A DNA stretch of 46,924 nucleotides from a virus. Lineage: Duplodnaviria > Heunggongvirae > Uroviricota > Caudoviricetes. Each line of letters opens with the position of its first letter. Position 1 is the stretch's first letter. The position numbers and the translations under genes were made by a program. The stretch lies in IMG/VR virus record IMGVR_UViG_2695420343_000002; one strand, 5' to 3'. Shown here in pieces: positions 688 to 46,924 of the stretch. The notes below the pieces were generated by a model, which saw only the letters and a program-made list of their open reading frames with translations, made no database searches and was not told the DNA's origin.

Positions 688-703
688 TGTAGGATATCCA
701 ACA
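688..703. promoter_or_regulatory. Operator-like 16-bp site TGTAGGATATCCAACA (copy of 40411-40426)
   Basis: Near-palindromic site between divergent cro-like and cI genes; same motif recurs downstream of cI. Confidence 0.45.
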
Positions 704-749
704 TACCAATGTCAAGAATCCTACATGGGCATGTGGTAGGATTGCCTAC

Positions 750-1400
750 ATGATGAACATGAGTGATCGTATTCGCCAAAGGCGAAAAGAACTGAACCTG
801 ACACAACAAGCACTGGCTGATTTGACTGGTGTGAACCGTGTCACGGTTACTGGATGGGAAAAGGACGACTACCAACCAAATGGAGCCAACCTTCAAGCCC
901 TAGCCAACGCACTTAAATGCGATCCTCTGTGGCTTGTTAGCGGAAAAGCTCGCCTGAACCAAAGATAAATCTAAAACCTGAAATATTCGCAGTTAAAAAA
1001 GTCCCCCTCATCTCGTGGTTCAGGCGGTTCATGGACAATGACGGAGCCTGGTGTCAGGAAAGAAGATGCTGAAGAGTGGGTTTATACTACCGCCCTTGTA
1101 TCAGAAATGGCATTTGCACTACGGGTCCGTGGTGATTCAATGACCAATCCCCTCGGCTCACCATCGATACCAGAAGGTTCTATCGTTATCGTAGAGCCAG
1201 ATATTATTGATACAGAGTGTATTAACGGAAAAATCGTTGTTGCCCATATCAATGGTGGGCAAGAAGCGACACTCAAAAAATTTGTTGAGGACTGGCCGAA
1301 CAGGTATCTCGTCCCACTAAATCCTAACTATAAAACTATTGAATGCGGTGAGAACTGCAGAATAGTTGGTCTTGTCAAACAAGTAATAATGGATTTTTGA
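750..1400 (+). pseudogene. CI-type prophage repressor (HTH + S24 peptidase), frame-broken copy of 40473-41126
   Basis: Track splits it into 750-968 and 1038-1400; copy B is one 217-aa ORF with the same residues. Confidence 0.55.
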
Positions 1401-1424
1401 CACATCTTCCTCACTATCGCAAAA

Positions 1425-1446
1425 CCGGGGTATCCCCGGTTTTTTT
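1425..1446 (+). terminator. Rho-independent terminator after cI (copy of 41151-41172)
   Basis: Hairpin CCGGGGTATCCCCGG followed by T7 run, 25 bp after the cI stop. Confidence 0.7.
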
Positions 1447-1463
1447 ATGAGCCTATCTTTTTA

Positions 1464-1514
1464 TGTAGGATAACCAACATAAACTCTTGACACTCACATG
1501 TTGGATATCCTACA
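1464..1514. promoter_or_regulatory. Inverted pair of operator-like sites flanking a TTGACA hexamer (copy of 41190-41240)
   Basis: TGTAGGATAACCAACA and TGTTGGATATCCTACA in inverted orientation, 18 bp apart. Confidence 0.45.
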
Positions 1515-2072: not shown

Positions 2073-2506
2073 TTGATTTTCCTTTTATGTATACGGGCTT
2101 AAAAGGATACCACCGAGCCTGAAGTGGTGAAAAGACAGGCACATAACAGCTAAGTATTTTCAACCAGAGAGAATCCTTAGCGTTGTGGTGAATGCGGCTC
2201 AGCGCACGCGGTTAAGGTTGAGGCTGACAGTCGACCTTCTGTGGATACCCACCCGCCTGGTGTGCAACCTTCGCCAGGCACCGGAGGCACCCGGCACCAC
2301 AACTTTATGCTGTGTGTAGTCCTCGCGGTACCAGTTTGTACACTTGCTTCCGGCTGGTACCGCTCTTTTACAAAACAGAGAAGAGCATCACCGGACGACG
2401 GGCTCATAACCCAATCCATCCGGGCGGCTGCCACCGCAGGTGTTCTTCTCTGTTTTGTGGAGAAACCAACCGACCTTGCAGGGTCGATATGATGAGGAGC
2501 AGCAAA

Positions 2507-2868: not shown

Positions 2869-2933
2869 TATCGTTTTTAATAAACTGATTATTTATCTCA
2901 TCACTGAATATTTTTATATAGTGAGGACTTATT

Positions 2934-3758
2934 ATGTCTCAGAACTTAGACGCAACCGCAATTAATCAAATCCATGCCCTTATTTCTGCTCAGGGTGTTA
3001 ATGAAATTATCAGTAAGATTGGTGCCGATGCTGTGGCATTGCCTGAGAATTTCCGCATTCATGATCTGGAAAAATTTAATTTAAATCGCTTCCGTTTCCG
3101 TGGTGCGCTTTCCACTGCCAGCATCGATGACTTTACCCGTTATTCTAAAGATCTTGCAGATGAAGGCACCCGCTGCTTTATCGATGCTGATAATATGCGT
3201 GCCGTCAGTGTGCTTAACCTGGGTACTATTGATGAACCAGGTCACGCAGATAACACCGCCACACTCAAACTGAAAAAGACAGCACCGTTCTCTGCTCTGT
3301 TGTCTGTTAACGGCGAGCGTAACTCCCAGAAATCACTGGCAGAATGGATTGAAGACTGGGCCGACTACCTTGTGGGCTTTGATGCTAATGGTGACGCCAT
3401 TCAGGCAACAAAAGCGGCTGCGGCAATCCGTAAAATCACGATTGAAGCAAACCAGACCGCTGATTTTGAAGATAATGACTTCAGCGGCAAACGCTCCCTG
3501 ATGGAATCTGTCGAAGCGAAGACCAAAGACATTATGCCAGTGGCATTTGAATTTAAATGCGTTCCGTTTGAAGGTCTGAAAGAACGTCCGTTTAAATTAC
3601 GCCTCAGCATTATCACTGGCGATCGTCCTGTACTGGTTCTGCGCATTATTCAGCTGGAAGCAGTGCAGGAAGATATGGCTAACGAATTTCGTGATCTGCT
3701 TGTTGAGAAATTCAAAGACAGCAAAGTAGAAACCTTTATTGGTACTTTCACCGCCTGA
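2934..3758 (+). CDS. YfdQ-like phage early protein (274 aa)
   Basis: Intact 274-aa ORF; length and position after a YfdP-like gene match the KplE1 yfdPQRS block as I recall it. Confidence 0.75.
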
Positions 3759-3885
3759 TTTCATTACTGCAAATGCCCCTGCGGGGGCATTTATGGAAAC
3801 GTAATTAACTCAATAATCACCGGATGGTGAGGGCTTCCTTTTACCCAAACTCAGCGCGGTGCAGCGCATATACGTGGAGAACAAA

Positions 3886-4422
3886 ATGTCATTTATTAAA
3901 ACTTTTTCCGGGAAGCATTTTTATTATGACAGGATAAATAAAGACGACATCGATATTAACGATATCGCGGTTTCTCTTTCAAATATCTGTCGCTTTGCCG
4001 GTCATCTTTCGCACTTCTACAGCGTCGCCCAACATGCGGTTCTTTGCAGCCAGCTGGTGCCGCAGGAATTTGCTTTTGAAGCGTTAATGCATGATGCAAC
4101 AGAAGCGTATTGCCAGGACATTCCCGCACCACTGAAACGCCTTCTTCCTGACTATAAACAAATGGAAGAAAAAATAGACTCCGTAATCCGTGAGAAATAC
4201 GGATTACCCCCAGTTATGAGTACGCCCGTGAAATATGCCGATCTCATCATGCTGGCAACCGAACGCCGCGATCTCGGGCTTGATGATGGCTCTTTCTGGC
4301 CTGTACTGGAAGGTATCCCGGCAACAGAGATGTTCAACGTGATTCCACTGGCACCGGGCCATGCCTACGGGATGTTTATGGAACGCTTTAACGAGTTATC
4401 GGAGTTACGCAAATGCGCATGA
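3886..4422 (+). CDS. HD-domain phosphohydrolase (YfdR-like)
   Basis: H..H and HD motifs (SVAQHAV, ALMHDATEAY); ATG at 3886 has GGAGA 6 nt upstream; track start 3859 is a GTG. Confidence 0.75.
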   Translation: MSFIKTFSGKHFYYDRINKDDIDINDIAVSLSNICRFAGHLSHFYSVAQHAVLCSQLVPQEFAFEALMHDATEAYCQDIPAPLKRLLPDYKQMEEKIDSVIREKYGLPPVMSTPVKYADLIMLATERRDLGLDDGSFWPVLEGIPATEMFNVIPLAPGHAYGMFMERFNELSELRKCA

Positions 4423-4775
4423 ATGTTTTCGAAATGGAAGGGTTTCTTCGTGGGAGATGTGTACCGCGAGATCTGAAAGTAAATGAAACAGATGCTGAAT
4501 ACCTGGTGCGTAAATTCGATGCGCTTGAAGCTAAATGTGCAGCACAGGAAAACAAAGTAATACCAGTGTCAACTGAACTGCCACCAGCAAATGAAAGTGT
4601 TTTGTTATTCGATGCTAACGGAGAAGGCTGGCTAATTGGCTGGCGTTCTCTCTGGTACACCTGGGGACAAAAAGAAACCGGAGAATGGCAGTGGACATTT
4701 CAGGTCGGGGACCTTGAAAACGTCAATATCACTCACTGGGCAGTAATGCCAAAAGCACCGGAGGCTGGAGCATAA
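4413..4775 (+). CDS. DUF551-like protein (YfdS-like)
   Basis: 120 aa; C-terminal W-rich region ending NITHWAVMPKAPE resembles the DUF551 signature. Confidence 0.65.
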   Translation: MRMNVFEMEGFLRGRCVPRDLKVNETDAEYLVRKFDALEAKCAAQENKVIPVSTELPPANESVLLFDANGEGWLIGWRSLWYTWGQKETGEWQWTFQVGDLENVNITHWAVMPKAPEAGA

Positions 4776-5353
4776 TGACCACTTTTACTGACAAAGAACT
4801 GATTAAAGAAATTAAAGAGCGTATCAGCAGCCTTGACGTGCGAGACGATATTGAGCGCCGTGCTTATGAAATTGCACTGGCATCACTGGGAGCAGAACCT
4901 GTAAGCCAAACTTACAACTTGCCAGAATTAATCGAAGGCATGGAGGTTTCCATTGATGTAAGCACTTGTGATGCGGATTTAGGTAATCGCTATTTCGGTA
5001 CCGTCACCGAGGCGTTAGAACTTGATACTGCCAAGAATGGTTACATCCTCCTGGTTCAGGACGCAGAGCCAAACTTCGATATAAATGGCAACTCTCCGGT
5101 AACTCCGGATGGTTGGGTCATGGTGCCGAAGAAACTAACCGCTGAGAACGGCGCTAAGGGTGTGCTATCCGGTGAATTTTCAGAAACTACGTTTATAAGC
5201 TGCCCGGAATGCTTTGGCGATGATGATTGCGATACCTGCGACGGGAGCGGACGTATTGAAATTAAAGTGCCAGTCACGTGGTCGACCATAAAATCTATCT
5301 GGGATAAAGGTATCGAGTATTTTGCAGCAAAACCATCACAAGAGGTGAAGTGA
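4775..5353 (+). CDS. Hypothetical protein with C-terminal zinc-finger (CPEC...CDTCDGSG)
   Basis: 192-aa ORF; start overlaps previous stop (ATGA); CxxC plus CxxCxGxG motif. Confidence 0.65.
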   Translation: MTTFTDKELIKEIKERISSLDVRDDIERRAYEIALASLGAEPVSQTYNLPELIEGMEVSIDVSTCDADLGNRYFGTVTEALELDTAKNGYILLVQDAEPNFDINGNSPVTPDGWVMVPKKLTAENGAKGVLSGEFSETTFISCPECFGDDDCDTCDGSGRIEIKVPVTWSTIKSIWDKGIEYFAAKPSQEVK

Positions 5354-5925
5354 TGAACAACTTAATGATCGACCTTGAGACGATGGGGAAAAATAAGGAT
5401 GCACCGATCGTTTCCATTGGCGCGGTGTTCTTTACCCCAGAAACCGGTGACATCGGACAAGAATTCTATGCGGTTGTCAGCCTGGACAGTGCTATGAAGC
5501 AAGGAGCTACACCTGACGGCGATACCATCCTGTGGTGGTTGAAACAGAGCCCTGAAGCACGAGCTGCAATCTGTATTGATGATACTTTATCGATCAGCGA
5601 TGCACTCTCTGAATTGAGTCATTTCATTAATCAGCATGCAGACAATATAAAATATTTAAAAGTCTGGGGTAACGGGGCCACCTTCGACAACGTAATTTTA
5701 CGTGGAGCTTACGAGCGAGCAGGACAAATCTGCCCGTGGGCGTACTGGAATGACCACGATGTACGCACGATCGTTACGCTTGGGCGTTCCATCGGATTCG
5801 ACCCCAAAATGGACATGCCTTTCGATGGCGAACGGCACAACGCCCTGGCTGATGCCCGTCATCAGGCAAAATATGTTTCCGCTATCTGGCAGAAATTAAT
5901 TCCTGCCACCAGCACAGAATTATGA
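5350..5925 (+). CDS. DEDDh-type 3'-5' exonuclease
   Basis: MIDLETMG (D-x-E) near the N-terminus and H-x4-D near the C-terminus (HNALADARHQ). Confidence 0.7.
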   Translation: MMNNLMIDLETMGKNKDAPIVSIGAVFFTPETGDIGQEFYAVVSLDSAMKQGATPDGDTILWWLKQSPEARAAICIDDTLSISDALSELSHFINQHADNIKYLKVWGNGATFDNVILRGAYERAGQICPWAYWNDHDVRTIVTLGRSIGFDPKMDMPFDGERHNALADARHQAKYVSAIWQKLIPATSTEL

Positions 5926-5961
5926 TTTTCCCGGGTGCAGCCGGTTTTGATGGAGAAAATT

Positions 5962-6243
5962 ATGAACACCTTGTTTTTACTGATGGCTGAATTCAATACC
6001 CCAAACATTGAACTCTCAGCAGTTAGCCAAAAGTACTTTGGTATGAGTCCAGCCACGGCAGAAGCAAAAGCAAACGCTTGTAAGTTGCCCGTTCCAACAT
6101 ATCGCATCGGCACATCACAAAAAGCAAAACGTTGCATCAATATTCAAGATCTTGCGGAATACATAGACAAAAGGCGAGAAGAAGGACGTATCGAGTGGGA
6201 ACAGGTCAGAACAGTCAAACAGAAGGACAAAGAACATCACTAA
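5962..6243 (+). CDS. Excisionase-like DNA-binding protein (TorI/PrtN-like)
   Basis: Small protein starting MNTLFLLMAEF; last gene before the int junction; GGAGA 7 nt upstream of ATG at 5962. Confidence 0.5.
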   Translation: MNTLFLLMAEFNTPNIELSAVSQKYFGMSPATAEAKANACKLPVPTYRIGTSQKAKRCINIQDLAEYIDKRREEGRIEWEQVRTVKQKDKEHH

Positions 6244-6273
6244 AGAAAAAACCCGCCTGAAGGCGGGTTTTCA
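6243..6273. terminator. Bidirectional rho-independent terminator
   Basis: ACCCGCC-TGAA-GGCGGGT hairpin flanked by an A-run and a T-run, between convergent genes. Confidence 0.7.
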
Positions 6274-6290
6274 AAAAGCACCAGCTATGA

Positions 6291-6464
6291 TCATGCTGCT
6301 TTGCGACGACGAAGCTTACCCTGCTGCTCTTTACCAGAGACAGTAGCGTGAGTGAACGCATTAGGAGCAGCCTTCATCAGAACTTCAACAGCAGCACCCA
6401 TACCTGCGAATGCTTTCATTGTGTCGAACTTAACCTGTGGCTTGGTTGCTTTTTGATCTTTCAT
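6291..6464 (-). CDS. Small basic protein, 57 aa, hypothetical (below track cutoff)
   Basis: Translated by hand: MKDQKATKPQVKFDTMKAFAGMGAAVEVLMKAAPNAFTHATVSGKEQQGKLRRRKAA; GGGAG 8 nt upstream of ATG. Confidence 0.5.
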   Translation of the reverse strand: MKDQKATKPQVKFDTMKAFAGMGAAVEVLMKAAPNAFTHATVSGKEQQGKLRRRKAA

Positions 6465-6535
6465 AGAAAACTCCCGAGACAGTAAAGGCGTCTCTAACCC
6501 TTTCTTTAAAGCTAGCTTGTTTCGCTAACTTATGC

Positions 6536-6556
6536 CAATCGATCATGTCGATTGGT
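6536..6556. promoter_or_regulatory. Palindrome CCAATCGA-N5-TCGATTGG upstream of the small ORF
   Basis: Perfect 8-bp inverted arms, 5-bp spacer, about 70 bp upstream of the 6464 start codon. Confidence 0.4.
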
Positions 6557-6660
6557 GACATCGTTTCTTAGTAGTTTAAGCACAAAACGACTGCCATAGA
6601 TGTACCTTTAAGGTAATCTGGACGGGTATCCTACAATTTGTAGACCCTTCTCGTCTATAC

Positions 6661-7197
6661 CTACTGAGCAAATTTAAGAAAGATATCCTGCAGCTCATCA
6701 ATGACTGCCGACATCACATAACCGCACTGTTCCATGCGGAAACCAAAAGACTCGTAATACTGCACCAGTTCTGGTACTGGCTCTACAATGTGGACAACTT
6801 TACATTCAACAGCTTTACAAAATATAAAAGCACTCATAAGAGTGAGTAAAACCATGCGCCCTTTCAATGGGTGAGATTCATCTTCTCTAGAAAACCTTTC
6901 GATCATATGGATACGAAAGATGTTTTCTTCAACCCCATAAACACAAATTGCTGCTCCTGATGGTATTCCCTGAACCCGACCTTGCTGAACAAGTTTTATG
7001 CAGAACTCATACTTTTCTCTGGAGTTGCCATAGGTACTTAACGCATAGTCCCATTCAAGCTCACCATAGCCACCACACAGAATCTTGTAATCATCATCAC
7101 TGAGCGGACCAACAGCAAGAGGTAAGCCGACATGATCAATAATCAACTGGATATTGTTACGTACTGATTGACCTATCTCGTCCAGGGTAAGCATCAT
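6661..7197 (-). CDS. Putative GNAT-fold N-acetyltransferase (accessory gene)
   Basis: 178-aa ORF; C-terminal YYESFGF resembles the GNAT motif; looks AT-rich by eye; no search run. Confidence 0.5.
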   Translation of the reverse strand: MMLTLDEIGQSVRNNIQLIIDHVGLPLAVGPLSDDDYKILCGGYGELEWDYALSTYGNSREKYEFCIKLVQQGRVQGIPSGAAICVYGVEENIFRIHMIERFSREDESHPLKGRMVLLTLMSAFIFCKAVECKVVHIVEPVPELVQYYESFGFRMEQCGYVMSAVIDELQDIFLKFAQ

Positions 7198-15344: not shown

Positions 15345-16423
15345 CAGAACGGGTCCTCCTGTACTCTGGCTTTTTTCTTTTTCCGCGCGCCGGGGGCTTC
15401 GGGTTCAGGCAGATAAGCATCAGGTGGGCCGACACGGATTTCCGTCAGGGTGCCGTTCTGGTCCTGAGTAAACGTGACTTCCGAAACAAGCAGTTCGGTA
15501 TTGTCGAAACCACAGACCGGATCAAAGACAATCACCCGCTGGTTGGGCTGCCACAGCGTACCGTTACCCTGTCGCCAGCCCTGCACCACATAGGTGGTTT
15601 CATCCGTCCGCGCCGCCCGTTGTCGGGCTTCAAAGTCCGCACGGGCAATACAGCCTGCCCCCGTAGCCTGCCCTGTCTGCCTGATATACATCGGACGGTA
15701 ACGGGCAATAAATGCGTCCTCTGTGCGGGCCCGCAGCGCGGTGGTGGTGGCCTCACCGAAATCATCGTCGTTTCCGGCACGCTGCCCCGCCACCTGGTAA
15801 ACAGAAAACCGCTCCCGGATACTCTTCTCCGTATCGCAGGAAAGGATGTTTTCCCCGAGTACCAGCGCAGTATGTGCCCGCGTTGAGCCAATACCGCCAA
15901 TCACCAGCCTGCCGTGCGGGTCGTCGTAAGCCAGTGCCTGCTGCTGACCGAGTATTTTGTTGATTACCTCAATCACCGTTTCACCGTGATCAGGCTGGAC
16001 ATCAGGAATAACACCCGACGGCGCACCGTTGTTCACCACCTCAATGCCGAAAGGCGCAGCAAGCGCCTGCGCAATCTGTACCAGCGATCGTCCGTTAAAC
16101 TGTGTCGGTTCGGCTGCACAGTCAATCAGGTCAGCCGTCAGACTACGTCCGGCAATACCGGTGCTGACCGAACGGGCATCGTAACGAACGGGGGTCGCCT
16201 CCACCCAGCCGGTGATCACCAGCTCATCACCAATCAGCACTTCCACTTTTGAACCATTTTTAATGCGCGGCTGAAGCGTGGTGATACCCTCATCTCCCGG
16301 CCACTGGCGGGTGATCTCCACGCTGAAATCCCGCGCCAGCCGTTCAATACCGGCACCGATGCGCACCGATGTCCAGCCATTCCACTCCCGGCCATTTACC
16401 CGTAGCGTGACGTTATCGTTCAT
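15344..16423 (-). CDS. Mu gpP-like baseplate/tail protein
   Basis: 359 aa; follows the DNA-circulation gene as in Mu. Confidence 0.6.
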   Translation of the reverse strand: MNDNVTLRVNGREWNGWTSVRIGAGIERLARDFSVEITRQWPGDEGITTLQPRIKNGSKVEVLIGDELVITGWVEATPVRYDARSVSTGIAGRSLTADLIDCAAEPTQFNGRSLVQIAQALAAPFGIEVVNNGAPSGVIPDVQPDHGETVIEVINKILGQQQALAYDDPHGRLVIGGIGSTRAHTALVLGENILSCDTEKSIRERFSVYQVAGQRAGNDDDFGEATTTALRARTEDAFIARYRPMYIRQTGQATGAGCIARADFEARQRAARTDETTYVVQGWRQGNGTLWQPNQRVIVFDPVCGFDNTELLVSEVTFTQDQNGTLTEIRVGPPDAYLPEPEAPGARKKKKARVQEDPF

Positions 16424-17880
16424 TGCACTGGCACCTTCAGAGGGATCACCGGCACAAAGCCGGGATGCGTAATGGCATTACGCCGGATAATGTCCGCGTC
16501 ACGCGCCGCGTTATCAAACCAGGTCGCCGCCAGCACCAGCGCGGGTAAGACCTCATCCGGCGTGCGCTGAATGATCCGAGCAGACTGTTCAAGGCGCGTG
16601 TTGATATCCGCATTCAGATCTGCTTTCACCCGGCGCAGCGCCAGAAACAGCGCATCACTGGTTGTACGGGACAACTCCTTATCAATTGCCGTATTCAGTG
16701 TGTCGCGAATGTCAGTCAGTTCTTCCCACGTTGGCAGGTCAACCGTGTTTTTCACCGCCGGTGCATTGTTCAGTGCCGGATGCGTGACGGAAGGCCAGCC
16801 GGTGCTCTGCGCGGAAGTTGTTGACTGCCCCACTGCGGCATTCTGCATCACCGCGGAAGTTGTTGACTGCCCCACTGCGGCATTCTGCATCACCGCGGAA
16901 GTTGTTGACTGCCCCACTGCGGCATTCTGCATCACCGCGGAAGTTGTTGGCGCAGGCAATCGGGTGACGGCATACGCCGCTTCGCTGATTGCGGTCGCAC
17001 GAAGGGTGCTGGCAACCACGTTACGCTGCTGCGTCGCCGTGGCGGTGGTTTTACTGTCCGTTTTCCAGACGCCGCGCGGTTGCAGATCGCTGCCGAGGCT
17101 GACACCGGAAAGCGTTTTGATCATGGTGACCAGGTCGCTGGCGTTACCATAAAGGCGTTTCCCGGTACGCCACATTTTCTGCACCTGCTCAACGAAATTT
17201 TTGCCTGACGATGGCGGCGGCAGAAGTACCGAGATATCCCCCTGCAACAGCCTGGCGGCATCCGATACGGCAGAATCCACCACTTTCATCGCATCAGAAA
17301 CATACCCCAGCATTATGCTGGCATTACCGATAACGTCGTTCTGCACGAAATCCGCCACACCATCGATACTGAAACCGCTGAAGCTGTCACTGATGCAGTC
17401 ATCCAGTGCAGAACAGGATGACATCAGCGTCTGCGCCGTCGCCGCACCTGATGTGGGGTAAGAGAGTTCTCCCGCTTCGACAAACTTCAGGTCAAAGCGG
17501 ACAATACGCCCTTCACTTTTCGATGTGCTGACCCGAACCTCTCCGTCAACACAGACTTTCAGCTCACCGTAAGTCGGGTGGACAAGCGTGCCGGGACCGG
17601 GTTTATTCAGCGCGTCAATCAGGCGATCGCGCTGGTCAAAGCAGTCATCGCCCACCACATAAGCCGTGATGGACGGGCGGAAAGTGACTTTTCCCAGATC
17701 TTCGGTATAGGGTTTGTCGCGGTTCGGATATTCGTGTGTTTCCACACGGCGACCTGTTCCCGCACTTTCTTCTTCAACCTTAAACGGCACACCGCGAAAT
17801 GACGCGTCCTGAAGCCTGTCTTTCCACGTCATATAAACTCCGGATATAAAAAAGCCCACCGAAGTGGGCATGAAAGACAT
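16420..17880 (-). CDS. DNA circulation protein (Mu gpN-like)
   Basis: 486 aa directly downstream of the tape-measure region; contains three in-frame repeats AVMQNAAVGQSTTS. Confidence 0.65.
   Translation of the reverse strand: MSFMPTSVGFFISGVYMTWKDRLQDASFRGVPFKVEEESAGTGRRVETHEYPNRDKPYTEDLGKVTFRPSITAYVVGDDCFDQRDRLIDALNKPGPGTLVHPTYGELKVCVDGEVRVSTSKSEGRIVRFDLKFVEAGELSYPTSGAATAQTLMSSCSALDDCISDSFSGFSIDGVADFVQNDVIGNASIMLGYVSDAMKVVDSAVSDAARLLQGDISVLLPPPSSGKNFVEQVQKMWRTGKRLYGNASDLVTMIKTLSGVSLGSDLQPRGVWKTDSKTTATATQQRNVVASTLRATAISEAAYAVTRLPAPTTSAVMQNAAVGQSTTSAVMQNAAVGQSTTSAVMQNAAVGQSTTSAQSTGWPSVTHPALNNAPAVKNTVDLPTWEELTDIRDTLNTAIDKELSRTTSDALFLALRRVKADLNADINTRLEQSARIIQRTPDEVLPALVLAATWFDNAARDADIIRRNAITHPGFVPVIPLKVPVQ
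16811..16950. repeat. 42-bp tandem repeat, about 3.3 units, in-frame within the gpN-like gene
   Basis: GAAGTTGTTGAC recurs at 16814, 16856, 16898 and 16940. Confidence 0.85.
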
Positions 17881-38285: not shown

Positions 38286-39223
38286 CCCCTGAATCCTGCC
38301 GGGATCTGGCTGTAGTCCACGTTGTCGTAACTGGATTTGAAGTACGGATCTTCACGTTTTTCTGTGTATGTGCTGACGGACGGCGATAAGCGCAGGGAAA
38401 GCTCATCCCATTTTTCCCGCAGCTTCGACGGGCTGAGCACGTTACGGCACCAGAACGGATCGCGGCTGACGCGGCTGTACATCTCGCAGATTTGTTTGTG
38501 AGTACGACCATCCTGCACACACATCAGGCGAATTTCGTTTGCCCAGGCTGTCCAGTTCGGTTCTTTGGGACGAACCACCTCGCCGTCACATTCGGCAGCC
38601 TGCTCGTACAGGGCGATGATTTTTTTCCAGAGCCACTGTGCGCAGGTCAAATCATCCTGCGTCCCCCACTGGCGTTTTTTAGGGCTGAATACAACCGCAT
38701 CAGGATGGCGAGTTAAAAAATCCTGTTCAGCCGTCTGCGTGTCCGGTTGCGAAGCGTCCGGACGAGAAGGTTTTTTATCTGACGGATCATGTTTTGATTT
38801 TACTGACGGATCCCCGCCAGATTCTGACGGGTGAAAACCCGCTTTTTTGCCAGATTTCGACGCATCAAATTTTGACGGGTCAGATTTTGATGCGTCAGAT
38901 TTTGACGGGTCAGAATCTGACAGTTGAGAAAATGCCGCTGCCTGAAGCTTCGCAACGTTAAGCTGATAAACATTCGACGCATTGCGGTTACCCTGGCGAC
39001 GCGCCTTACGCGTTAACCAGCCTTCTGCTTCCAGCCGTGCGATAGCCGTTCTGACGGTACTCATCCCCGCGCCAATCTGGCGGGCAATGGTTTCAATTGA
39101 TGGCCAGCACACACCTTCGTCATTACTGAAATCAGCCAGGCGGGCCATAATTGCCACGCTGGATAATTTCATGCCTGACGCTGCGCAACCATCCCATACA
39201 TAGCCGGTTAATTTAGTGCTCAT
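38282..39223 (-). CDS. Replication initiator O-like protein (N-terminal HTH) with internal iteron repeats
   Basis: N-terminal [17 protein letters not shown]...TIARQIGAGMSTVRTAIARLEAEGWL; central low-complexity DSDPSKSDASKSDPSKFDASKS encoded by tandem DNA repeats. Confidence 0.65.
   Translation of the reverse strand: MSTKLTGYVWDGCAASGMKLSSVAIMARLADFSNDEGVCWPSIETIARQIGAGMSTVRTAIARLEAEGWLTRKARRQGNRNASNVYQLNVAKLQAAAFSQLSDSDPSKSDASKSDPSKFDASKSGKKAGFHPSESGGDPSVKSKHDPSDKKPSRPDASQPDTQTAEQDFLTRHPDAVVFSPKKRQWGTQDDLTCAQWLWKKIIALYEQAAECDGEVVRPKEPNWTAWANEIRLMCVQDGRTHKQICEMYSRVSRDPFWCRNVLSPSKLREKWDELSLRLSPSVSTYTEKREDPYFKSSYDNVDYSQIPAGFRG
38777..38922. repeat. Iteron-like direct repeats (candidate origin inside the initiator gene)
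   Basis: About 8 copies of (A)TTTTGACGGGTCAG-like 15-bp units; three consecutive units at 38868, 38883 and 38898. Confidence 0.6.
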
Positions 39224-39571
39224 GACCGACCTCTATTTCCCTGAATTTACGACGAAACTGTTCGAGCGGACTGAAGCACTCATGCTCATAGCCTTCGCGG
39301 AGGTAGATAACCCGTTGTGTTTCCGGTTCCCAACGAATGACTCTGACGGGCACTCCGTAGTGATCTTTGAACCAGCGGTTAACTTGTCGCAAAGGACTGT
39401 CTCCTTCTGCCGGTTGAAATCCCCCACAGCCCACTCTGCAAAGCTGTGGGTTACAATTTCCCTGTCACCTGGTACATTCACTGCATAGCAATACTCCACC
39501 TTCGCTTTTCCACCCGGTACAGGAAGCGCAATCAGTTGCGAGCGACGGTAGTGTGTTGTTAAACTGTTCAT
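39213..39571 (-). CDS. Hypothetical early protein, apparently frame-broken
   Basis: N-terminal half in track ORF 39233-39571, C-terminal half in 39213-39434 (GTG start in track); frames meet at a C5/G5 run at 39421-39425. Confidence 0.45.
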
Positions 39572-40152
39572 GCGTTAGTTTCTCCACAACCAGAAGCAAT
39601 CGACGCCACGACGCCCGGAGCTGCACACTCGCGGGCGTTACTCTTTTCCGGCGCACAAAAAACACGAAATAACAGTGTTAAATGCTCCTGCCACTTCGCC
39701 ATTACTTGGTAGCTGTTCTCTTCGATTTGCTCACGCTCAGCTTGGTCAATAACTCCATCAGCAGTTGCCTTGCGTAAGTACTGGGAATGCTTGCCAATCC
39801 ATTCTATTGACTCCATCAGCCGCTGATTAATGTCACCATTGTCAATGTCATCAATGACCACCAGCGGCACAAACACCCCATTACTACGACGGGCTATTGC
39901 ATCTGTTACATGCCTGGTACCACTGGCATCCTGTAAAACCATGGCCCACTCAAGTGGAAAAATTTGATCCCCACCGCTACGCAGTCTGTTATGCAATTGA
40001 TCTTTTGCTGGGGTGATATCATCAGATTTATACAAACCAAGAATTTCTGCTGCTTCCTCATAGCCATGAGGTAAATCAGCAATCGTTCTTCGTATTGCTG
40101 CCACCAGCCATGCTGGTTGTTTATCAACTTTCCATTCAGGTTCTTTACCCAC
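39568..40152 (-). CDS. CII-like / YdaT-family early regulatory protein (putative)
   Basis: 194 aa directly downstream of the cro-like gene in the rightward early operon; call is by position and family recollection. Confidence 0.45.
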
Positions 40153-40179
40153 GGTTAATTCCTCATTTCTGTGGTGTTT

Positions 40180-40377
40180 TTATGCCGCAGCACTGTTAGT
40201 CTTTTGATATAAAGACACGTCAACTTTCAGTTTCCCGTTAGTAATTTTTTCTAACTGGTACGCTCGGCCTTCAGGAATAATCTCAGGCCACTCTGAAACA
40301 GACGGATGCTTAATACCTAGGGCTTCGGCGGTTTTACAAACTCCGCCGAAATAATTAATCACGTCGGATTTCCGCAT
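40180..40377 (-). CDS. Cro-like HTH protein (YdaS family)
   Basis: 65 aa; GGVCKTAEALGIKHPSVSEW pattern; divergent from cI across an operator-rich spacer. Confidence 0.75.
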   Translation of the reverse strand: MRKSDVINYFGGVCKTAEALGIKHPSVSEWPEIIPEGRAYQLEKITNGKLKVDVSLYQKTNSAAA

Positions 40378-40404
40378 TTCTGTCTCCCGTTAAATTACGT
40401 TAAG

Positions 40405-40475
40405 CAGAAATGTAGGATATCCAACATACCAATGTCAAGAATCCTACATGGGCATGTGGTAGGATTGCCTACATG
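40405..40475. promoter_or_regulatory. Operator cluster between the cro-like gene and cI
   Basis: TGTAGGATATCCAACA at 40411-40426; inverted AATCCTACA/TGTGGTAGGATT at 40439-40465; GTAGGATTGCCTACA abutting the cI start. Confidence 0.5.
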
Positions 40476-41126
40476 ATGAACATGAGTGATCGTATTCGCC
40501 AAAGGCGAAAAGAACTGAACCTGACACAACAAGCACTGGCTGATTTGACTGGTGTGAACCGTGTCACGGTTACTGGATGGGAAAAGGACGACTACCAACC
40601 AAATGGAGCCAACCTTCAAGCCCTAGCCAACGCACTTAAATGCGATCCTCTGTGGCTTGTTAGCGGAAAAGGCTCGCCTGAACCAAAGATAAATCTAAAA
40701 CCTGAAATATTCGCAGTTAAAAAAGTCCCCCTCATCTCGTGGGTTCAGGCGGGTTCATGGACAATGACGGAGCCTGGTGTCAGGAAAGAAGATGCTGAAG
40801 AGTGGGTTTATACTACCGCCCTTGTATCAGAAATGGCATTTGCACTACGGGTCCGTGGTGATTCAATGACCAATCCCCTCGGCTCACCATCGATACCAGA
40901 AGGTTCTATCGTTATCGTAGAGCCAGATATTATTGATACAGAGTGTATTAACGGAAAAATCGTTGTTGCCCATATCAATGGTGGGCAAGAAGCGACACTC
41001 AAAAAATTTGTTGAGGACTGGCCGAACAGGTATCTCGTCCCACTAAATCCTAACTATAAAACTATTGAATGCGGTGAGAACTGCAGAATAGTTGGTCTTG
41101 TCAAACAAGTAATAATGGATTTTTGA
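40473..41126 (+). CDS. cI: CI-type prophage repressor (HTH_XRE + S24 LexA-like peptidase)
   Basis: 217 aa; LTQQALADLTGVNRVTVTGWE HTH; VRGDSMTNPLG Ser motif and K in LKKF for autocleavage. Confidence 0.9.
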   Translation: MMNMSDRIRQRRKELNLTQQALADLTGVNRVTVTGWEKDDYQPNGANLQALANALKCDPLWLVSGKGSPEPKINLKPEIFAVKKVPLISWVQAGSWTMTEPGVRKEDAEEWVYTTALVSEMAFALRVRGDSMTNPLGSPSIPEGSIVIVEPDIIDTECINGKIVVAHINGGQEATLKKFVEDWPNRYLVPLNPNYKTIECGENCRIVGLVKQVIMDF

Positions 41127-41150
41127 CACATCTTCCTCACTATCGCAAAA

Positions 41151-41172
41151 CCGGGGTATCCCCGGTTTTTTT
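41151..41172 (+). terminator. Rho-independent terminator after cI
   Basis: CCGGGGTATCCCCGG hairpin followed by T7. Confidence 0.75.
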
Positions 41173-41189
41173 ATGAGCCTATCTTTTTA

Positions 41190-41240
41190 TGTAGGATAAC
41201 CAACATAAACTCTTGACACTCACATGTTGGATATCCTACA
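41190..41240. promoter_or_regulatory. Second operator pair downstream of cI, flanking a TTGACA hexamer
   Basis: TGTAGGATAACCAACA at 41190-41205 and TGTTGGATATCCTACA at 41225-41240, inverted relative to each other. Confidence 0.5.
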
Positions 41241-41359
41241 TTTGTTTTTAGAGTTGTGGTGAATGCGCAGGCTGATGCGCGAAAGACATTGCAGCTATTG
41301 CGGAAAAGAGCTGTTCGGCGGGGCCATTAAACGCCCGTATCTGGAGGTTAAAGAACAAA

Positions 41360-41635
41360 ATGAAAGTCCAGATTTTAAACAATAGTGGTGAAGTCGTTTG
41401 GTCATACGACATAGCCGCTCCTGTAGATCAGAGCGGCGATAGCTGGACCAATGGGAAACATCAGATTATGGCTGGAGTTGTATTCTCTTTACGCCGTGCT
41501 TTGGAACAGGCTGAAGTATTTCCATCAGACCCTGAATGGAAATGGCCTTTTTCTATTTGTCCAAATTCGGAGAGCACATTTCAGAAAATTGGTCAGAAAG
41601 TCGCACTCGAAGAGCATCAGCCAACTGTTTCCTGA
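41360..41635 (+). CDS. Hypothetical protein downstream of cI (exclusion-gene position)
   Basis: GGAGG RBS; 91 aa; no motif recognised. Confidence 0.5.
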   Translation: MKVQILNNSGEVVWSYDIAAPVDQSGDSWTNGKHQIMAGVVFSLRRALEQAEVFPSDPEWKWPFSICPNSESTFQKIGQKVALEEHQPTVS

Positions 41636-41798
41636 TTTTTTCAGGTAACTCGTCGGCATCGCAGAAACAACAACGCTCGATCATGTTGAAAGCCGATTCG
41701 TAGAACTGTTTCTGCTGAGTGTCGCTGAGACAGGAAAAGAGCGACGTTACGATGATTTTATTAATTGCATTATCAAGTTCTTTTTCATCAAAAGTCAT
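41553..41798 (-). CDS. Hypothetical protein, convergent with and overlapping the previous ORF
   Basis: AAGGA RBS; 81 aa; overlaps the neighbour by 83 nt. Confidence 0.45.
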   Translation of the reverse strand: MTFDEKELDNAINKIIVTSLFSCLSDTQQKQFYESAFNMIERCCFCDADELPEKIRKQLADALRVRLSDQFSEMCSPNLDK

Positions 41799-42235
41799 TT
41801 GATTTTCCTTTTATGTATACGGGCTTAAAAGGATACCACCGAGCCTGAAGTGGTGAAAAGACAGGCACATAACAGCTAAGTATTTTCAACCAGAGAGAAT
41901 CCTTAGCGTTGTGGTGAATGCGGCTCAGCGCACGCGGGTTAAGGTTGAGGCTGACAGTCGACCTTCTGTGGATACCCACCCGCCTGGTGTGCAACCTTCG
42001 CCAGGCACCGGGAGGCACCCGGCACCACAACTTTATGCTGTGTGTAGTCCTCGCGGTACCAGTTTGTACACTTGCTTCCGGCTGGTACCGCTCTTTTTAC
42101 AAAACAGAGAAGAGCATCACCGGACGACGGGCTCATAACCCAATCCATCCGGGCGGCTGCCACCGCAGGTGTTCTTCTCTGTTTTGTGGAGAAACCAACC
42201 GACCTTGCAGGGTCGATATGATGAGGAGCAGCAAA

Positions 42236-42598
42236 ATGGCTAGCGAACGCAGTACTGATGTGCAGGCATTTATCGGGGAGCTGGACGGCGGCGTATTTGA
42301 AACCAAAATCGGCGCAGTTCTCAGTGAAGTCGCTTCCGGTGTGATGAACACGAAAACCAAAGGGAAGGTCTCACTCAACCTGGAAATCGAACCATTTGAT
42401 GAGAACCGTGTGAAAATCAAACACAAACTCTCATATATTCGCCCGACTAACCGCGGGAAAATTTCCGAAGAAGACACCACCGAAACGCCGATGTATGTCA
42501 ATCGCGGTGGTCGCCTGACTATTCTGCAGGAAGACCAGGGACAATTACTGACTCTTGCCGGTGAACCTGACGGAAAACTCCGCGCAGCAGGTCATTAA
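42236..42598 (+). CDS. YfdP-like early protein (120 aa)
   Basis: GAGGAG 8 nt upstream of ATG at 42236; the longer track ORF from 41918 is a read-through of the leader. Confidence 0.6.
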   Translation: MASERSTDVQAFIGELDGGVFETKIGAVLSEVASGVMNTKTKGKVSLNLEIEPFDENRVKIKHKLSYIRPTNRGKISEEDTTETPMYVNRGGRLTILQEDQGQLLTLAGEPDGKLRAAGH

Positions 42599-42663
42599 TA
42601 TCGTTTTTAATAAACTGATTATTTATCTCATCACTGAATATTTTTATATAGTGAGGACTTATT

Positions 42664-43488
42664 ATGTCTCAGAACTTAGACGCAACCGCAATTAATCAAA
42701 TCCATGCCCTTATTTCTGCTCAGGGTGTTAATGAAATTATCAGTAAGATTGGTGCCGATGCTGTGGCATTGCCTGAGAATTTCCGCATTCATGATCTGGA
42801 AAAATTTAATTTAAATCGCTTCCGTTTCCGTGGTGCGCTTTCCACTGCCAGCATCGATGACTTTACCCGTTATTCTAAAGATCTTGCAGATGAAGGCACC
42901 CGCTGCTTTATCGATGCTGATAATATGCGTGCCGTCAGTGTGCTTAACCTGGGTACTATTGATGAACCAGGTCACGCAGATAACACCGCCACACTCAAAC
43001 TGAAAAAGACAGCACCGTTCTCTGCTCTGTTGTCTGTTAACGGCGAGCGTAACTCCCAGAAATCACTGGCAGAATGGATTGAAGACTGGGCCGACTACCT
43101 TGTGGGCTTTGATGCTAATGGTGACGCCATTCAGGCAACAAAAGCGGCTGCGGCAATCCGTAAAATCACGATTGAAGCAAACCAGACCGCTGATTTTGAA
43201 GATAATGACTTCAGCGGCAAACGCTCCCTGATGGAATCTGTCGAAGCGAAGACCAAAGACATTATGCCAGTGGCATTTGAATTTAAATGCGTTCCGTTTG
43301 AAGGTCTGAAAGAACGTCCGTTTAAATTACGCCTCAGCATTATCACTGGCGATCGTCCTGTACTGGTTCTGCGCATTATTCAGCTGGAAGCAGTGCAGGA
43401 AGATATGGCTAACGAATTTCGTGATCTGCTTGTTGAGAAATTCAAAGACAGCAAAGTAGAAACCTTTATTGGTACTTTCACCGCCTGA
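42664..43488 (+). CDS. YfdQ-like phage early protein (274 aa)
   Basis: Identical translation to 2934-3758. Confidence 0.75.
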
Positions 43489-43615
43489 TTTCATTACTGC
43501 AAATGCCCCTGCGGGGGCATTTATGGAAACGTAATTAACTCAATAATCACCGGATGGTGAGGGCTTCCTTTTACCCAAACTCAGCGCGGTGCAGCGCATA
43601 TACGTGGAGAACAAA

Positions 43616-44152
43616 ATGTCATTTATTAAAACTTTTTCCGGGAAGCATTTTTATTATGACAGGATAAATAAAGACGACATCGATATTAACGATATCGCGG
43701 TTTCTCTTTCAAATATCTGTCGCTTTGCCGGTCATCTTTCGCACTTCTACAGCGTCGCCCAACATGCGGTTCTTTGCAGCCAGCTGGTGCCGCAGGAATT
43801 TGCTTTTGAAGCGTTAATGCATGATGCAACAGAAGCGTATTGCCAGGACATTCCCGCACCACTGAAACGCCTTCTTCCTGACTATAAACAAATGGAAGAA
43901 AAAATAGACTCCGTAATCCGTGAGAAATACGGATTACCCCCAGTTATGAGTACGCCCGTGAAATATGCCGATCTCATCATGCTGGCAACCGAACGCCGCG
44001 ATCTCGGGCTTGATGATGGCTCTTTCTGGCCTGTACTGGAAGGTATCCCGGCAACAGAGATGTTCAACGTGATTCCACTGGCACCGGGCCATGCCTACGG
44101 GATGTTTATGGAACGCTTTAACGAGTTATCGGAGTTACGCAAATGCGCATGA
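43616..44152 (+). CDS. HD-domain phosphohydrolase (YfdR-like)
   Basis: Identical to 3886-4422; H..H and HD motifs. Confidence 0.75.
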   Translation: MSFIKTFSGKHFYYDRINKDDIDINDIAVSLSNICRFAGHLSHFYSVAQHAVLCSQLVPQEFAFEALMHDATEAYCQDIPAPLKRLLPDYKQMEEKIDSVIREKYGLPPVMSTPVKYADLIMLATERRDLGLDDGSFWPVLEGIPATEMFNVIPLAPGHAYGMFMERFNELSELRKCA

Positions 44153-44505
44153 ATGTTTTCGAAATGGAAGGGTTTCTTCGTGGGAGATGTGTACCGCGAG
44201 ATCTGAAAGTAAATGAAACAGATGCTGAATACCTGGTGCGTAAATTCGATGCGCTTGAAGCTAAATGTGCAGCACAGGAAAACAAAGTAATACCAGTGTC
44301 AACTGAACTGCCACCAGCAAATGAAAGTGTTTTGTTATTCGATGCTAACGGAGAAGGCTGGCTAATTGGCTGGCGTTCTCTCTGGTACACCTGGGGACAA
44401 AAAGAAACCGGAGAATGGCAGTGGACATTTCAGGTCGGGGACCTTGAAAACGTCAATATCACTCACTGGGCAGTAATGCCAAAAGCACCGGAGGCTGGAG
44501 CATAA
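44143..44505 (+). CDS. DUF551-like protein (YfdS-like)
   Basis: Identical to 4413-4775. Confidence 0.65.
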   Translation: MRMNVFEMEGFLRGRCVPRDLKVNETDAEYLVRKFDALEAKCAAQENKVIPVSTELPPANESVLLFDANGEGWLIGWRSLWYTWGQKETGEWQWTFQVGDLENVNITHWAVMPKAPEAGA

Positions 44506-45083
44506 TGACCACTTTTACTGACAAAGAACTGATTAAAGAAATTAAAGAGCGTATCAGCAGCCTTGACGTGCGAGACGATATTGAGCGCCGTGCTTATGAA
44601 ATTGCACTGGCATCACTGGGAGCAGAACCTGTAAGCCAAACTTACAACTTGCCAGAATTAATCGAAGGCATGGAGGTTTCCATTGATGTAAGCACTTGTG
44701 ATGCGGATTTAGGTAATCGCTATTTCGGTACCGTCACCGAGGCGTTAGAACTTGATACTGCCAAGAATGGTTACATCCTCCTGGTTCAGGACGCAGAGCC
44801 AAACTTCGATATAAATGGCAACTCTCCGGTAACTCCGGATGGTTGGGTCATGGTGCCGAAGAAACTAACCGCTGAGAACGGCGCTAAGGGTGTGCTATCC
44901 GGTGAATTTTCAGAAACTACGTTTATAAGCTGCCCGGAATGCTTTGGCGATGATGATTGCGATACCTGCGACGGGAGCGGACGTATTGAAATTAAAGTGC
45001 CAGTCACGTGGTCGACCATAAAATCTATCTGGGATAAAGGTATCGAGTATTTTGCAGCAAAACCATCACAAGAGGTGAAGTGA
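44505..45083 (+). CDS. Hypothetical protein with C-terminal zinc-finger (CPEC...CDTCDGSG)
   Basis: Identical to 4775-5353. Confidence 0.65.
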   Translation: MTTFTDKELIKEIKERISSLDVRDDIERRAYEIALASLGAEPVSQTYNLPELIEGMEVSIDVSTCDADLGNRYFGTVTEALELDTAKNGYILLVQDAEPNFDINGNSPVTPDGWVMVPKKLTAENGAKGVLSGEFSETTFISCPECFGDDDCDTCDGSGRIEIKVPVTWSTIKSIWDKGIEYFAAKPSQEVK

Positions 45084-45655
45084 TGAACAACTTAATGATC
45101 GACCTTGAGACGATGGGGAAAAATAAGGATGCACCGATCGTTTCCATTGGCGCGGTGTTCTTTACCCCAGAAACCGGTGACATCGGACAAGAATTCTATG
45201 CGGTTGTCAGCCTGGACAGTGCTATGAAGCAAGGAGCTACACCTGACGGCGATACCATCCTGTGGTGGTTGAAACAGAGCCCTGAAGCACGAGCTGCAAT
45301 CTGTATTGATGATACTTTATCGATCAGCGATGCACTCTCTGAATTGAGTCATTTCATTAATCAGCATGCAGACAATATAAAATATTTAAAAGTCTGGGGT
45401 AACGGGGCCACCTTCGACAACGTAATTTTACGTGGAGCTTACGAGCGAGCAGGACAAATCTGCCCGTGGGCGTACTGGAATGACCACGATGTACGCACGA
45501 TCGTTACGCTTGGGCGTTCCATCGGATTCGACCCCAAAATGGACATGCCTTTCGATGGCGAACGGCACAACGCCCTGGCTGATGCCCGTCATCAGGCAAA
45601 ATATGTTTCCGCTATCTGGCAGAAATTAATTCCTGCCACCAGCACAGAATTATGA
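45080..45655 (+). CDS. DEDDh-type 3'-5' exonuclease
   Basis: Identical to 5350-5925. Confidence 0.7.
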   Translation: MMNNLMIDLETMGKNKDAPIVSIGAVFFTPETGDIGQEFYAVVSLDSAMKQGATPDGDTILWWLKQSPEARAAICIDDTLSISDALSELSHFINQHADNIKYLKVWGNGATFDNVILRGAYERAGQICPWAYWNDHDVRTIVTLGRSIGFDPKMDMPFDGERHNALADARHQAKYVSAIWQKLIPATSTEL

Positions 45656-45691
45656 TTTTCCCGGGTGCAGCCGGTTTTGATGGAGAAAATT

Positions 45692-45973
45692 ATGAACACC
45701 TTGTTTTTACTGATGGCTGAATTCAATACCCCAAACATTGAACTCTCAGCAGTTAGCCAAAAGTACTTTGGTATGAGTCCAGCCACGGCAGAAGCAAAAG
45801 CAAACGCTTGTAAGTTGCCCGTTCCAACATATCGCATCGGCACATCACAAAAAGCAAAACGTTGCATCAATATTCAAGATCTTGCGGAATACATAGACAA
45901 AAGGCGAGAAGAAGGACGTATCGAGTGGGAACAGGTCAGAACAGTCAAACAGAAGGACAAAGAACATCACTAA
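45692..45973 (+). CDS. Excisionase-like DNA-binding protein (TorI/PrtN-like)
   Basis: Identical to 5962-6243. Confidence 0.5.
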   Translation: MNTLFLLMAEFNTPNIELSAVSQKYFGMSPATAEAKANACKLPVPTYRIGTSQKAKRCINIQDLAEYIDKRREEGRIEWEQVRTVKQKDKEHH

Positions 45974-46003
45974 AGAAAAAACCCGCCTGAAGGCGGGTTT
46001 TCA
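45973..46003. terminator. Bidirectional rho-independent terminator
   Basis: Same hairpin as 6243-6273. Confidence 0.7.
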
Positions 46004-46020
46004 AAAAGCACCAGCTATGA

Positions 46021-46194
46021 TCATGCTGCTTTGCGACGACGAAGCTTACCCTGCTGCTCTTTACCAGAGACAGTAGCGTGAGTGAACGCATTAGGAGCAG
46101 CCTTCATCAGAACTTCAACAGCAGCACCCATACCTGCGAATGCTTTCATTGTGTCGAACTTAACCTGTGGCTTGGTTGCTTTTTGATCTTTCAT
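46021..46194 (-). CDS. Small basic protein, 57 aa, hypothetical
   Basis: Copy of 6291-6464. Confidence 0.5.
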   Translation of the reverse strand: MKDQKATKPQVKFDTMKAFAGMGAAVEVLMKAAPNAFTHATVSGKEQQGKLRRRKAA

Positions 46195-46264
46195 AGAAAA
46201 CTCCCGAGACAGTAAAGGCGTCTCTAACCCTTTCTTTAAAGCTAGCTTGTTTCGCTAACTTATG

Positions 46265-46285
46265 CCAATCGATCATGTCGATTGG
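46265..46285. promoter_or_regulatory. Palindrome CCAATCGA-N5-TCGATTGG
   Basis: Copy of 6536-6556. Confidence 0.4.
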
Positions 46286-46390
46286 TGACATCGTTTCTTA
46301 GTAGTTTAAGCACAAAACGACTGCCATAGATGTACCTTTAAGGTAATCTGGACGGGTATCCTACAATTTGTAGACCCTTCTCGTCTATAC

Positions 46391-46924
46391 CTACTGAGCA
46401 AATTTAAGAAAGATATCCTGCAGCTCATCAATGACTGCCGACATCACATAACCGCACTGTTCCATGCGGAAACCAAAAGACTCGTAATACTGCACCAGTT
46501 CTGGTACTGGCTCTACAATGTGGACAACTTTACATTCAACAGCTTTACAAAATATAAAAGCACTCATAAGAGTGAGTAAAACCATGCGCCCTTTCAATGG
46601 GTGAGATTCATCTTCTCTAGAAAACCTTTCGATCATATGGATACGAAAGATGTTTTCTTCAACCCCATAAACACAAATTGCTGCTCCTGATGGTATTCCC
46701 TGAACCCGACCTTGCTGAACAAGTTTTATGCAGAACTCATACTTTTCTCTGGAGTTGCCATAGGTACTTAACGCATAGTCCCATTCAAGCTCACCATAGC
46801 CACCACACAGAATCTTGTAATCATCATCACTGAGCGGACCAACAGCAAGAGGTAAGCCGACATGATCAATAATCAACTGGATATTGTTACGTACTGATTG
46901 ACCTATCTCGTCCAGGGTAAGCAT
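46391..46924 (-). CDS. Putative GNAT-fold N-acetyltransferase, 5' end cut by the window edge
   Basis: Copy of 6661-7197 lacking only the first codon. Confidence 0.5.
   Translation of the reverse strand: MLTLDEIGQSVRNNIQLIIDHVGLPLAVGPLSDDDYKILCGGYGELEWDYALSTYGNSREKYEFCIKLVQQGRVQGIPSGAAICVYGVEENIFRIHMIERFSREDESHPLKGRMVLLTLMSAFIFCKAVECKVVHIVEPVPELVQYYESFGFRMEQCGYVMSAVIDELQDIFLKFAQ

Follow-up and report, generated by a model that had tools for sequence, protein, structure and literature searches.

Putative cI/Cro operators and promoters of a lambda-type immunity switch in a caudoviral genome from IMG/VR

The window analysed here, the whole 46,924-nt Caudoviricetes record IMGVR_UViG_2695420343_000002 of IMG/VR, encodes a cI-like repressor and a divergent Cro, and repeated 16-bp near-palindromes lie on both sides of the repressor gene. 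Judged from the sequence, these 16-bp sites are very probably the operators through which cI and Cro would act on the promoters PR, PRM and PL of a lambda-type immunity switch. The predicted layout is the canonical one, with three sites in a right operator (OR), two in a left operator (OL), a repressor that should be cleavable in the SOS response, and a P22-type Cro. The cI gene (217 aa; 40473..41126, plus strand) encodes a protein with Pfam matches to HTH_3 in its N-terminal part (E 1.1e-15) and to Peptidase_S24 in its C-terminal part (E 3.7e-25), and the cro product (65 aa; 40180..40377, minus strand) matches P22_Cro (PF14549, E 7.6e-22); the 95-bp spacer between the two divergent genes holds OR1, OR2 and OR3. 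When compared with solved structures, cI matched lambda cI (3bdn) over residues 9-210 (E 7e-25) and the N-terminal domain of P22 c2 over residues 4-66 (E 4e-14), the latter providing the closest helix-turn-helix (HTH) motif among them. None of the residues A93-G94, S131 and K177 varies among 20 homologues, and cI should therefore be subject to RecA/SOS-dependent cleavage. The putative recognition segment of Cro is GIKHPSVSEW.

Operator sites and promoters around cI

Exact matches to TGTAGGATAWCCAACA lie at 40411-40426 (+), 41190-41205 (+) and 41225-41240 (-), precisely where a first-pass annotation of the sequence had placed a repeated 16-mer. That annotation described both downstream copies as inverted, which holds for the copy at 41225 but not for the one at 41190, oriented like the copy at 40411; the slip is of little weight because 14 of the 16 positions in each 16-mer are self-complementary, the half-site of these near-palindromes being TGTAGGAT or TGTTGGAT. 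Its remaining landmarks were correctly placed: a TTGACA hexamer (41213-41218) stands between the downstream pair, GTAGGA/TCCTAC half-sites abut the start of cI at 40441-40448 and 40458-40473, with the ATG at 40473, and the downstream pair lies beyond a terminator of cI. The latter, a predicted intrinsic terminator at 41147..41176 (plus strand), consists of the hairpin AAAACCGGGG-UAU-CCCCGGUUUU followed by seven U residues (folding free energy -15.2 kcal/mol, z -3.1) and precedes both sites. It was recovered by direct folding, having been overlooked by a promoter/terminator scan, which had probably extended the stem into the flanking A/U tracts.

A scan of the window for the 16-mer with up to three mismatches gave 12 strand-matches against 0.66 expected, a number reached in none of 100 shuffles, and half of these twelve come from a duplicated contig end. 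Positions 1-7194 repeat positions 39714-46924 without a single substitution; they differ by 17 one-base deletions, which all fall in the first copy, for the most part within short homopolymers, and frameshift its cI, for example at 947. This self-overlap is probably the end-overlap of a circular or concatemeric assembly, probably made from long reads, and the non-redundant genome amounts to ~39.7 kb. Because the window ends overlap, the matches at 688-703, 1464-1479 and 1499-1514 (span 688..1514) are not independent; they are copies of the sites at 40411, 41190 and 41225, and a second operator locus was ruled out. We scored sites out of 16 against the palindromic consensus TGTWGGATATCCWACA over the non-redundant 39.7 kb and took the chance expectation from 200 runs of a first-order Markov simulation. 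Four sites score at least 13/16, those at 40411 (16), 40458 (13), 41190 (15) and 41225 (16), against 0.36 expected and a maximum of 2 in the simulated runs. All four are at the switch, and in this whole-genome motif scan, the check that the first-pass annotation had proposed, the motif is not scattered over non-promoter positions.

OR1 (40411..40426; TGTAGGATATCCAACA; 16/16) covers the -10 hexamer and spacer of PR, its centre lying at about -16.5 from the predicted start, and OR3 (40458..40473; GGTAGGATTGCCTACA; 13/16) has the A of the cI ATG as its last base. The weak OR2 is placed at 40433..40448 (TGTCAAGAATCCTACA; 11/16), spanning the PR -35; one of its half-sites is perfect, and the assignment is made from its position and from the conservation of its outer half-site in relatives, nothing else. 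On the far side of cI, OL2 (41190..41205; TGTAGGATAACCAACA; 15/16) stands 7 bp upstream of the PL -35, with its centre at about -52.5, and OL1 (41225..41240; TGTTGGATATCCTACA; 16/16) covers the PL spacer and -10, with its centre at about -17.5, so that the two sites bracket the -35 hexamer. OR1 and OL1 are identical in promoter orientation, each extending over the spacer and into four bases of the -10. Measured between centres, OR1 and OR2 are 22 bp apart, OR2 and OR3 25 bp, and OL2 and OL1 35 bp; OR1 lies 814 bp from OL1.

No third OL site scoring at least 11/16 was found within 60 bp of OL1 or OL2. An 11/16 match at 41342 was rejected as an OL site, being 102 bp past OL1 and overlapping the ribosome-binding site of the downstream gene orf91. 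Matches of 12/16 at 41512, 46350 and 46407 were likewise rejected as extra operators: their number is that of chance (3.5 expected), and they fall within genes or at the 3' end of a gene. Two of them, 46350-46365 and 46407-46422, are 57 bp apart at the 3' end of a minus-strand gene adjoining xis and int.

PR and PL are the two best sigma-70 matches found by consensus scan in 40100-42300, both 10/12, and they are divergent. PR (40409..40438, minus strand) has its -35 TTGACA at 40438..40433, an 18-nt spacer and its -10 TACATT at 40414..40409, with a start predicted at ~40402; in PL (41213..41242, plus strand) the TTGACA at 41213-41218 is followed by an 18-nt spacer and TACATT at 41237-41242, with a start predicted at ~41250. 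A 20-nt core, ATGTTGGATATCCTACATTT, which contains the strongest operator, is common to both. PR is directed to cro and PL away from cI into a left operon ending in excisionase. An OL pair lying over a strong PL that points into a recombination/excisionase operon supports the suggestion of the first-pass annotation that the repressor also controls genes downstream of cI.

A candidate PRM (40457..40465, plus strand) would consist of an extended -10 element, TGgTAGGAT, lying inside OR3 plus the preceding T. An alignment of 17 related loci shows little or no variation in its T, G and TAGGAT columns, and no other conserved promoter-like element was seen there upstream of cI. The start predicted from this element, 7-8 nt past the -10 at 40472/40473, would make the cI mRNA leaderless, and we consider it reasonably likely that PRM is an extended -10 promoter giving such a leaderless transcript. 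Since the PRM -10 is inside OR3, occupancy of OR3 would block this promoter directly.

Conservation among related loci and rival explanations

A scan of one genome per species yielded 77 loci encoding relatives of the repressor, 76 of which had upstream sequence and were used; a locus was counted as having the operator if the 120 bp preceding the repressor gene held a site of at least 13/16. Such a site is present in all 21 loci whose recognition helix reads GV[NS]RVT[VIL]TGWE, the form found in the window's own repressor (GVNRVTVTGWE), and in none of the 55 with other helices. The OR1-equivalent stands at -62/-63 from the cI start in 21/21 loci and the OR3-equivalent at -15 in 20/21, and downstream sites occur about +55 and +90 after the repressor stop. 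Two operator subgroups can be told apart, TGTTGGAT, to which this phage belongs, and TGTAAGTT of Enterobacter and Kluyvera prophages.

Footprint alignment confined conservation to the operators and promoter hexamers. Across the 17 aligned loci the PR -35 GTCAA and the -10 are conserved, the outer half-site of OR2, CYTAC, is invariant while its adjoining spacer is not conserved, and the block formed by OR3 and PRM, TGGTAGGATTGCCTACATG, is nearly invariant even though the loci come from different genera; the OR2-OR3 spacer is not conserved. Relatives with the same helix have TTGACA-N18-TACATT after the repressor stop with OL1 over the -10, and an OL2-equivalent lies upstream of the -35 in 15 of the 16 aligned, 35 bp from OL1 (33 bp in locus L034). 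Furthermore, a 19-mer spanning OL1/OR1 and the -10 was found in 98 IMG/VR contigs, as a divergent pair in 67 of them and 815 bp apart in 53, indicating that PR/OR1 and PL/OL1 travel with cI as one module.

A sister clade of enterobacterial prophages, with repressors 50-55% identical and the helix GVSRVSVTKWE, keeps the OR1, OR3, OL2 and OL1 positions, the 35-bp OL spacing and the arrangement OL2-N7-TTGAC-N6-OL1/TACATT; both immunity groups retain the PL hexamers TTGACA and TACATT. Its sites read GGTAAC-N4-GGTACA (half-site GGTAAC/GGTACC-like) instead of TGTAGGAT, and the Cro segment HPSVSEW/HASVSGW is replaced by HPAVCRW. The sister clade is presumably heteroimmune. A joint change of cI helix, Cro helix and half-site on a background of fixed hexamers and spacing is as predicted for an immunity-specific operator, and neither a scar nor a chance repeat would readily account for it. 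The PL of HK022 (locus L084, 830-870) has GTAC-containing sites, TGTACTATTGGTAC and GAACTTTAAGTACA, that look similar to those of the sister clade (L020-L044); the cI of HK022 belongs to a different family.

The same comparison bears on which protein recognises the sites. We regard it as very unlikely that Cro or some other HTH protein of the phage, for instance a CII-like activator, is their main ligand and that cI works at another place or on another sequence. Since operator type covaries with the Cro helix too, covariation does not by itself distinguish cI from Cro; however, the motif tracks the cI recognition helix (21/21 versus 0/55), the OL pair adjoins cI at about 0.85 kb from cro, and no other repeated palindrome was seen in the cro-cI spacer. 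CII-type activators recognise direct repeats at PRE-type promoters and not palindromes over a -10, and to our knowledge every lambdoid switch studied has operators used by cI and Cro alike; both points count against such a reading. Less probable again is the proposal that the downstream pair is a non-functional duplicate of PR, for example a recombination scar at the module boundary, devoid of any regulatory role. The identical 20-nt core of PR and PL could indeed stem from duplication, but most relatives keep the OL2/-35/OL1/-10 layout at 35 bp, with repressor identities as low as about 50%, and it is the sites and hexamers that are conserved, not the sequence between them. Retention of this layout by the sister clade with a different half-site would require selection on both sites, and PL is directed into an operon containing excisionase. 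Chance recurrence or an artefact of the self-overlap, which did supply half of the twelve raw strand-matches, is already refuted, since discounting the overlap still leaves an 830-bp stretch with three exact sites and one of 13/16, where 0.36 would be expected in the whole genome, and the same sites occur in independent phage and bacterial records.

The interpretation of the sites as cI/Cro operators of PR, PRM and PL brings together the features by which a lambdoid switch is recognised: a divergent repressor/cro pair with a short spacer, a repressor with HTH and S24 domains bearing the Ala-Gly and Ser/Lys residues, palindromes over PR and PRM (OR2 and PRM from conservation only), OL over PL, and covariation of operator and helix. 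The likeness of the two clusters to lambda OL and OR, which the first-pass annotation had remarked on, is upheld by the cI and Cro genes, the divergent promoters, the conserved layout and the helix covariation, all of which agree.

Several observations weigh against this interpretation. The OR2 score of 11/16 is background, about 25 such sites being expected per genome. The association of helix and motif has a Fisher p of 3e-19, a value that overstates independence given that the loci are related. In lambda-style activation OR2 lies near -42 from the PRM start; a PRM start at 40473 puts the OR2 centre near -32.5, about one helical turn closer than in lambda, so that lambda-like positive autoregulation may not operate. 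With PRM buried in OR3 and OR2 at about -32, cI may lack this mode of control. Transcription from PL must cross a convergent open reading frame and a strong terminator-like hairpin (about 42060-42098; GGTACCAG...CTGGTACC with a T-run after it) before it reaches most genes of the left operon, the yfdP/yfdQ/exonuclease/xis genes among them, and neither an N-like antiterminator nor a put-like RNA was recognised. Finally, a search of the searchable literature found no operator sequence, binding, footprint or transcript-start data for this immunity type.

If the operators function as proposed, cI dimers at OR1 and OL1 would occlude the -10 elements of PR and PL in the lysogen. Occlusion of PR would silence cro, cII and replication (a CII-like gene, 39568-40152, follows cro), and occlusion of PL would silence the left operon from orf91 through the exonuclease to the excisionase. 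The weak OR2 over the PR -35 would probably be filled cooperatively from OR1, and filling of OR3 by either cI or Cro would turn PRM off, providing negative autoregulation in one case and a target for Cro in the other. RecA-stimulated self-cleavage at Ala93-Gly94 would then lift repression and induce the phage, with Cro subsequently acting on the same sites. OL2 would probably stabilise the occupancy of OL1 and may help to form a loop of about 0.8 kb between OL and OR; the looping, like cooperativity over the 35-bp spacing, is a tentative suggestion that we hold to be somewhat doubtful.

The PL leader RNA and the left operon

PHROG and Pfam matches, together with the annotation of identical phages, place the putative left operon under PL and OL at 41360..45973 (plus strand), which contains in order orf91, a yfdP-like gene, a yfdQ-like gene (DUF2303), an HD-family deoxynucleoside monophosphate phosphatase gene, an eae-like gene, an exonuclease gene and the excisionase gene. 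The first of these, orf91 (41360-41635, plus strand), is preceded by a GGAGG ribosome-binding site, and the excisionase gene (45665-45973, plus strand) is followed by a hairpin.

The PL leader (41250..41338, plus strand) represents the 5' fragment of a structured RNA that heteroimmune phages also carry. It is 97-99% identical to segments in mEp460, Shiga toxin 2a (Stx2a) phages and P1, and position 41250, where the homology to heteroimmune phages and to P1 sets in, coincides with the predicted PL start. In Lys8385Vzw, an Stx1 phage carrying the exact cI/cro/OR/OL module (4031-4977 of locus L002), the leader block continues into an RNA of ~190 nt (5099-5300 of the same locus) that is closed by GUUGUGGUG/CACCACAAC and has a strong terminal hairpin followed by U5. 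In the window, the leader is interrupted at 41338 by an insert of ~0.7 kb (41339-42052), absent from Lys8385Vzw, mEp460 and Stx2a_1447, which carries orf91 (plus strand, phrog_3195) and the convergent orf81 (41553-41798, minus strand, phrog_3311), both of unknown function. This insert looks like a moron cassette within the PL leader RNA.

A second, complete and divergent copy of the leader element lies 0.6 kb downstream. This STnc100-like RNA (41878-42100) matches the full-length model of Rfam RF02076 with 49.1 bits (gathering threshold 47), and the only parts it has in common with the leader element are the 5' GTTGTGGTGAATGCG and the 3' terminator. Neither 41250-41338 nor its intact Lys8385Vzw version reaches an E value of 0.1 with RF02076, and neither is assigned to that family. 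STnc100 is a prophage small RNA related to PasD (bioRxiv 10.64898/2026.05.13.724894). As a general feature of the repressor family it was discarded, no matches being found in 20 related loci. We also rejected the PL leader as an HK022-type put RNA: reading side by side, the only comparison made, gave no sequence likeness to HK022 PL-putL, and neither PL region (41250-41338 or HK022 PL-putL) has an Rfam match. That PL fires straight into a structured, terminator-ended RNA related to STnc100, by which the repressor would gate a small RNA or attenuator placed before the recombination and excision genes, is conceivable but unlikely. Were it so, transcripts would need some form of antitermination to read through.

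In many relatives of both immunity groups the string CATCAACAGCGAACAGGCAGGACGCC occurs about 10-40 nt after PL, where it may be a leader or nut-like element; it does not occur in the window. In the early-right region of Lys8385Vzw (2877-3075 of locus L002, minus strand), Rfam models identified C4 antisense RNA (75 bits) and isrK (62 bits), which together indicate an antirepressor control module of the P1/P7 immI type; no equivalent was seen within 39000-44000, the part of the window that was scanned.

Module carriers and comparison with known systems

The structural genes of the window are ~97% identical to those of the Shigella/E. coli myoviruses SfII, SfI and SfIV and of vB_EcoM-689R6, and the immunity region is 99.6-100% identical in six phage records: vB_EcoM-720R4, SKA5, Lys8385Vzw and three Stx2c-converting phages. 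Among 5426 complete E. coli genomes the module was found in 140 (about 2.6%; 142 matching records), and in all but one of the 142 records it is at least 99% identical. In Lys8385Vzw the module genes are annotated as a 'LexA family transcriptional repressor' and a hypothetical protein. The published description of this phage states that CI and Cro are absent (PMC7946995), and the switch has therefore gone unrecognised there. Elsewhere in the window, a 486-aa open reading frame (16420-17880, minus strand) contains a perfect 42-bp tandem repeat of 3.3 copies (16810-16949), which would encode an in-frame 14-aa repeat.

The present analysis defines a putative operator, with half-site TGTAGGAT, and a promoter layout for an immunity specificity for which no operator had previously been described. 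The carriers of the module are E. coli prophages, SfI/SfII-like myoviruses and Stx1- and Stx2c-converting phages, and knowledge of the sites allows homoimmunity and heteroimmunity to be predicted among these prophages, induction reporters to be built, including reporters of Stx-phage induction, and a comparison to be drawn with the two-site OL of 933W. The arrangement itself is the lambda paradigm and adds nothing conceptual; its use lies in annotation and immunity prediction.

As in lambda, cI and cro are divergent, a tripartite OR lies over PR and PRM, and a second cluster lies over PL beyond cI. The repressor should likewise be SOS-cleavable and has a homologous C-terminal domain, the cI mRNA is, as in lambda, probably leaderless, and the PL operon ends in xis, with corresponding content and order. 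The operators differ: those described here are 16 bp with half-site TGTAGGAT, whereas lambda sites are 17 bp, and OL has two sites 35 bp apart, whereas lambda has three at about 24 bp. Adjacent lambda operators are spaced 24 bp, and 35 bp is about one helical turn more. The OL-OR distance is 0.8 kb here and 2.4 kb in lambda, because rexAB is missing here. In contrast to lambda, OR3 contains the candidate PRM -10 and part of the start codon, its last base being the A of the ATG, and no N gene was recognised.

The likeness to P22 resides in the proteins, the HTH of cI being closest to that of c2 and Cro falling in the P22_Cro Pfam family. The recognition helix of P22 reads VSNVAISQWE, compared with VNRVTVTGWE here, and P22 operators are 18 bp with TTAA-type half-sites unrelated to TGTAGGAT.

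The five-site layout has a documented precedent in 933W, whose repressor has five natural sites; OR holds three of them and OL, which lacks an OL3, only two (PMC3317979), and the two OL sites surround PL (PMC4587872). The 933W repressor was reported to bind adjacent sites without cooperativity (PMC3317979). Both layouts are found in Stx phages, the module described here occurring in Stx1 and Stx2c phages; the two systems differ in the sequences of their repressors and operators.

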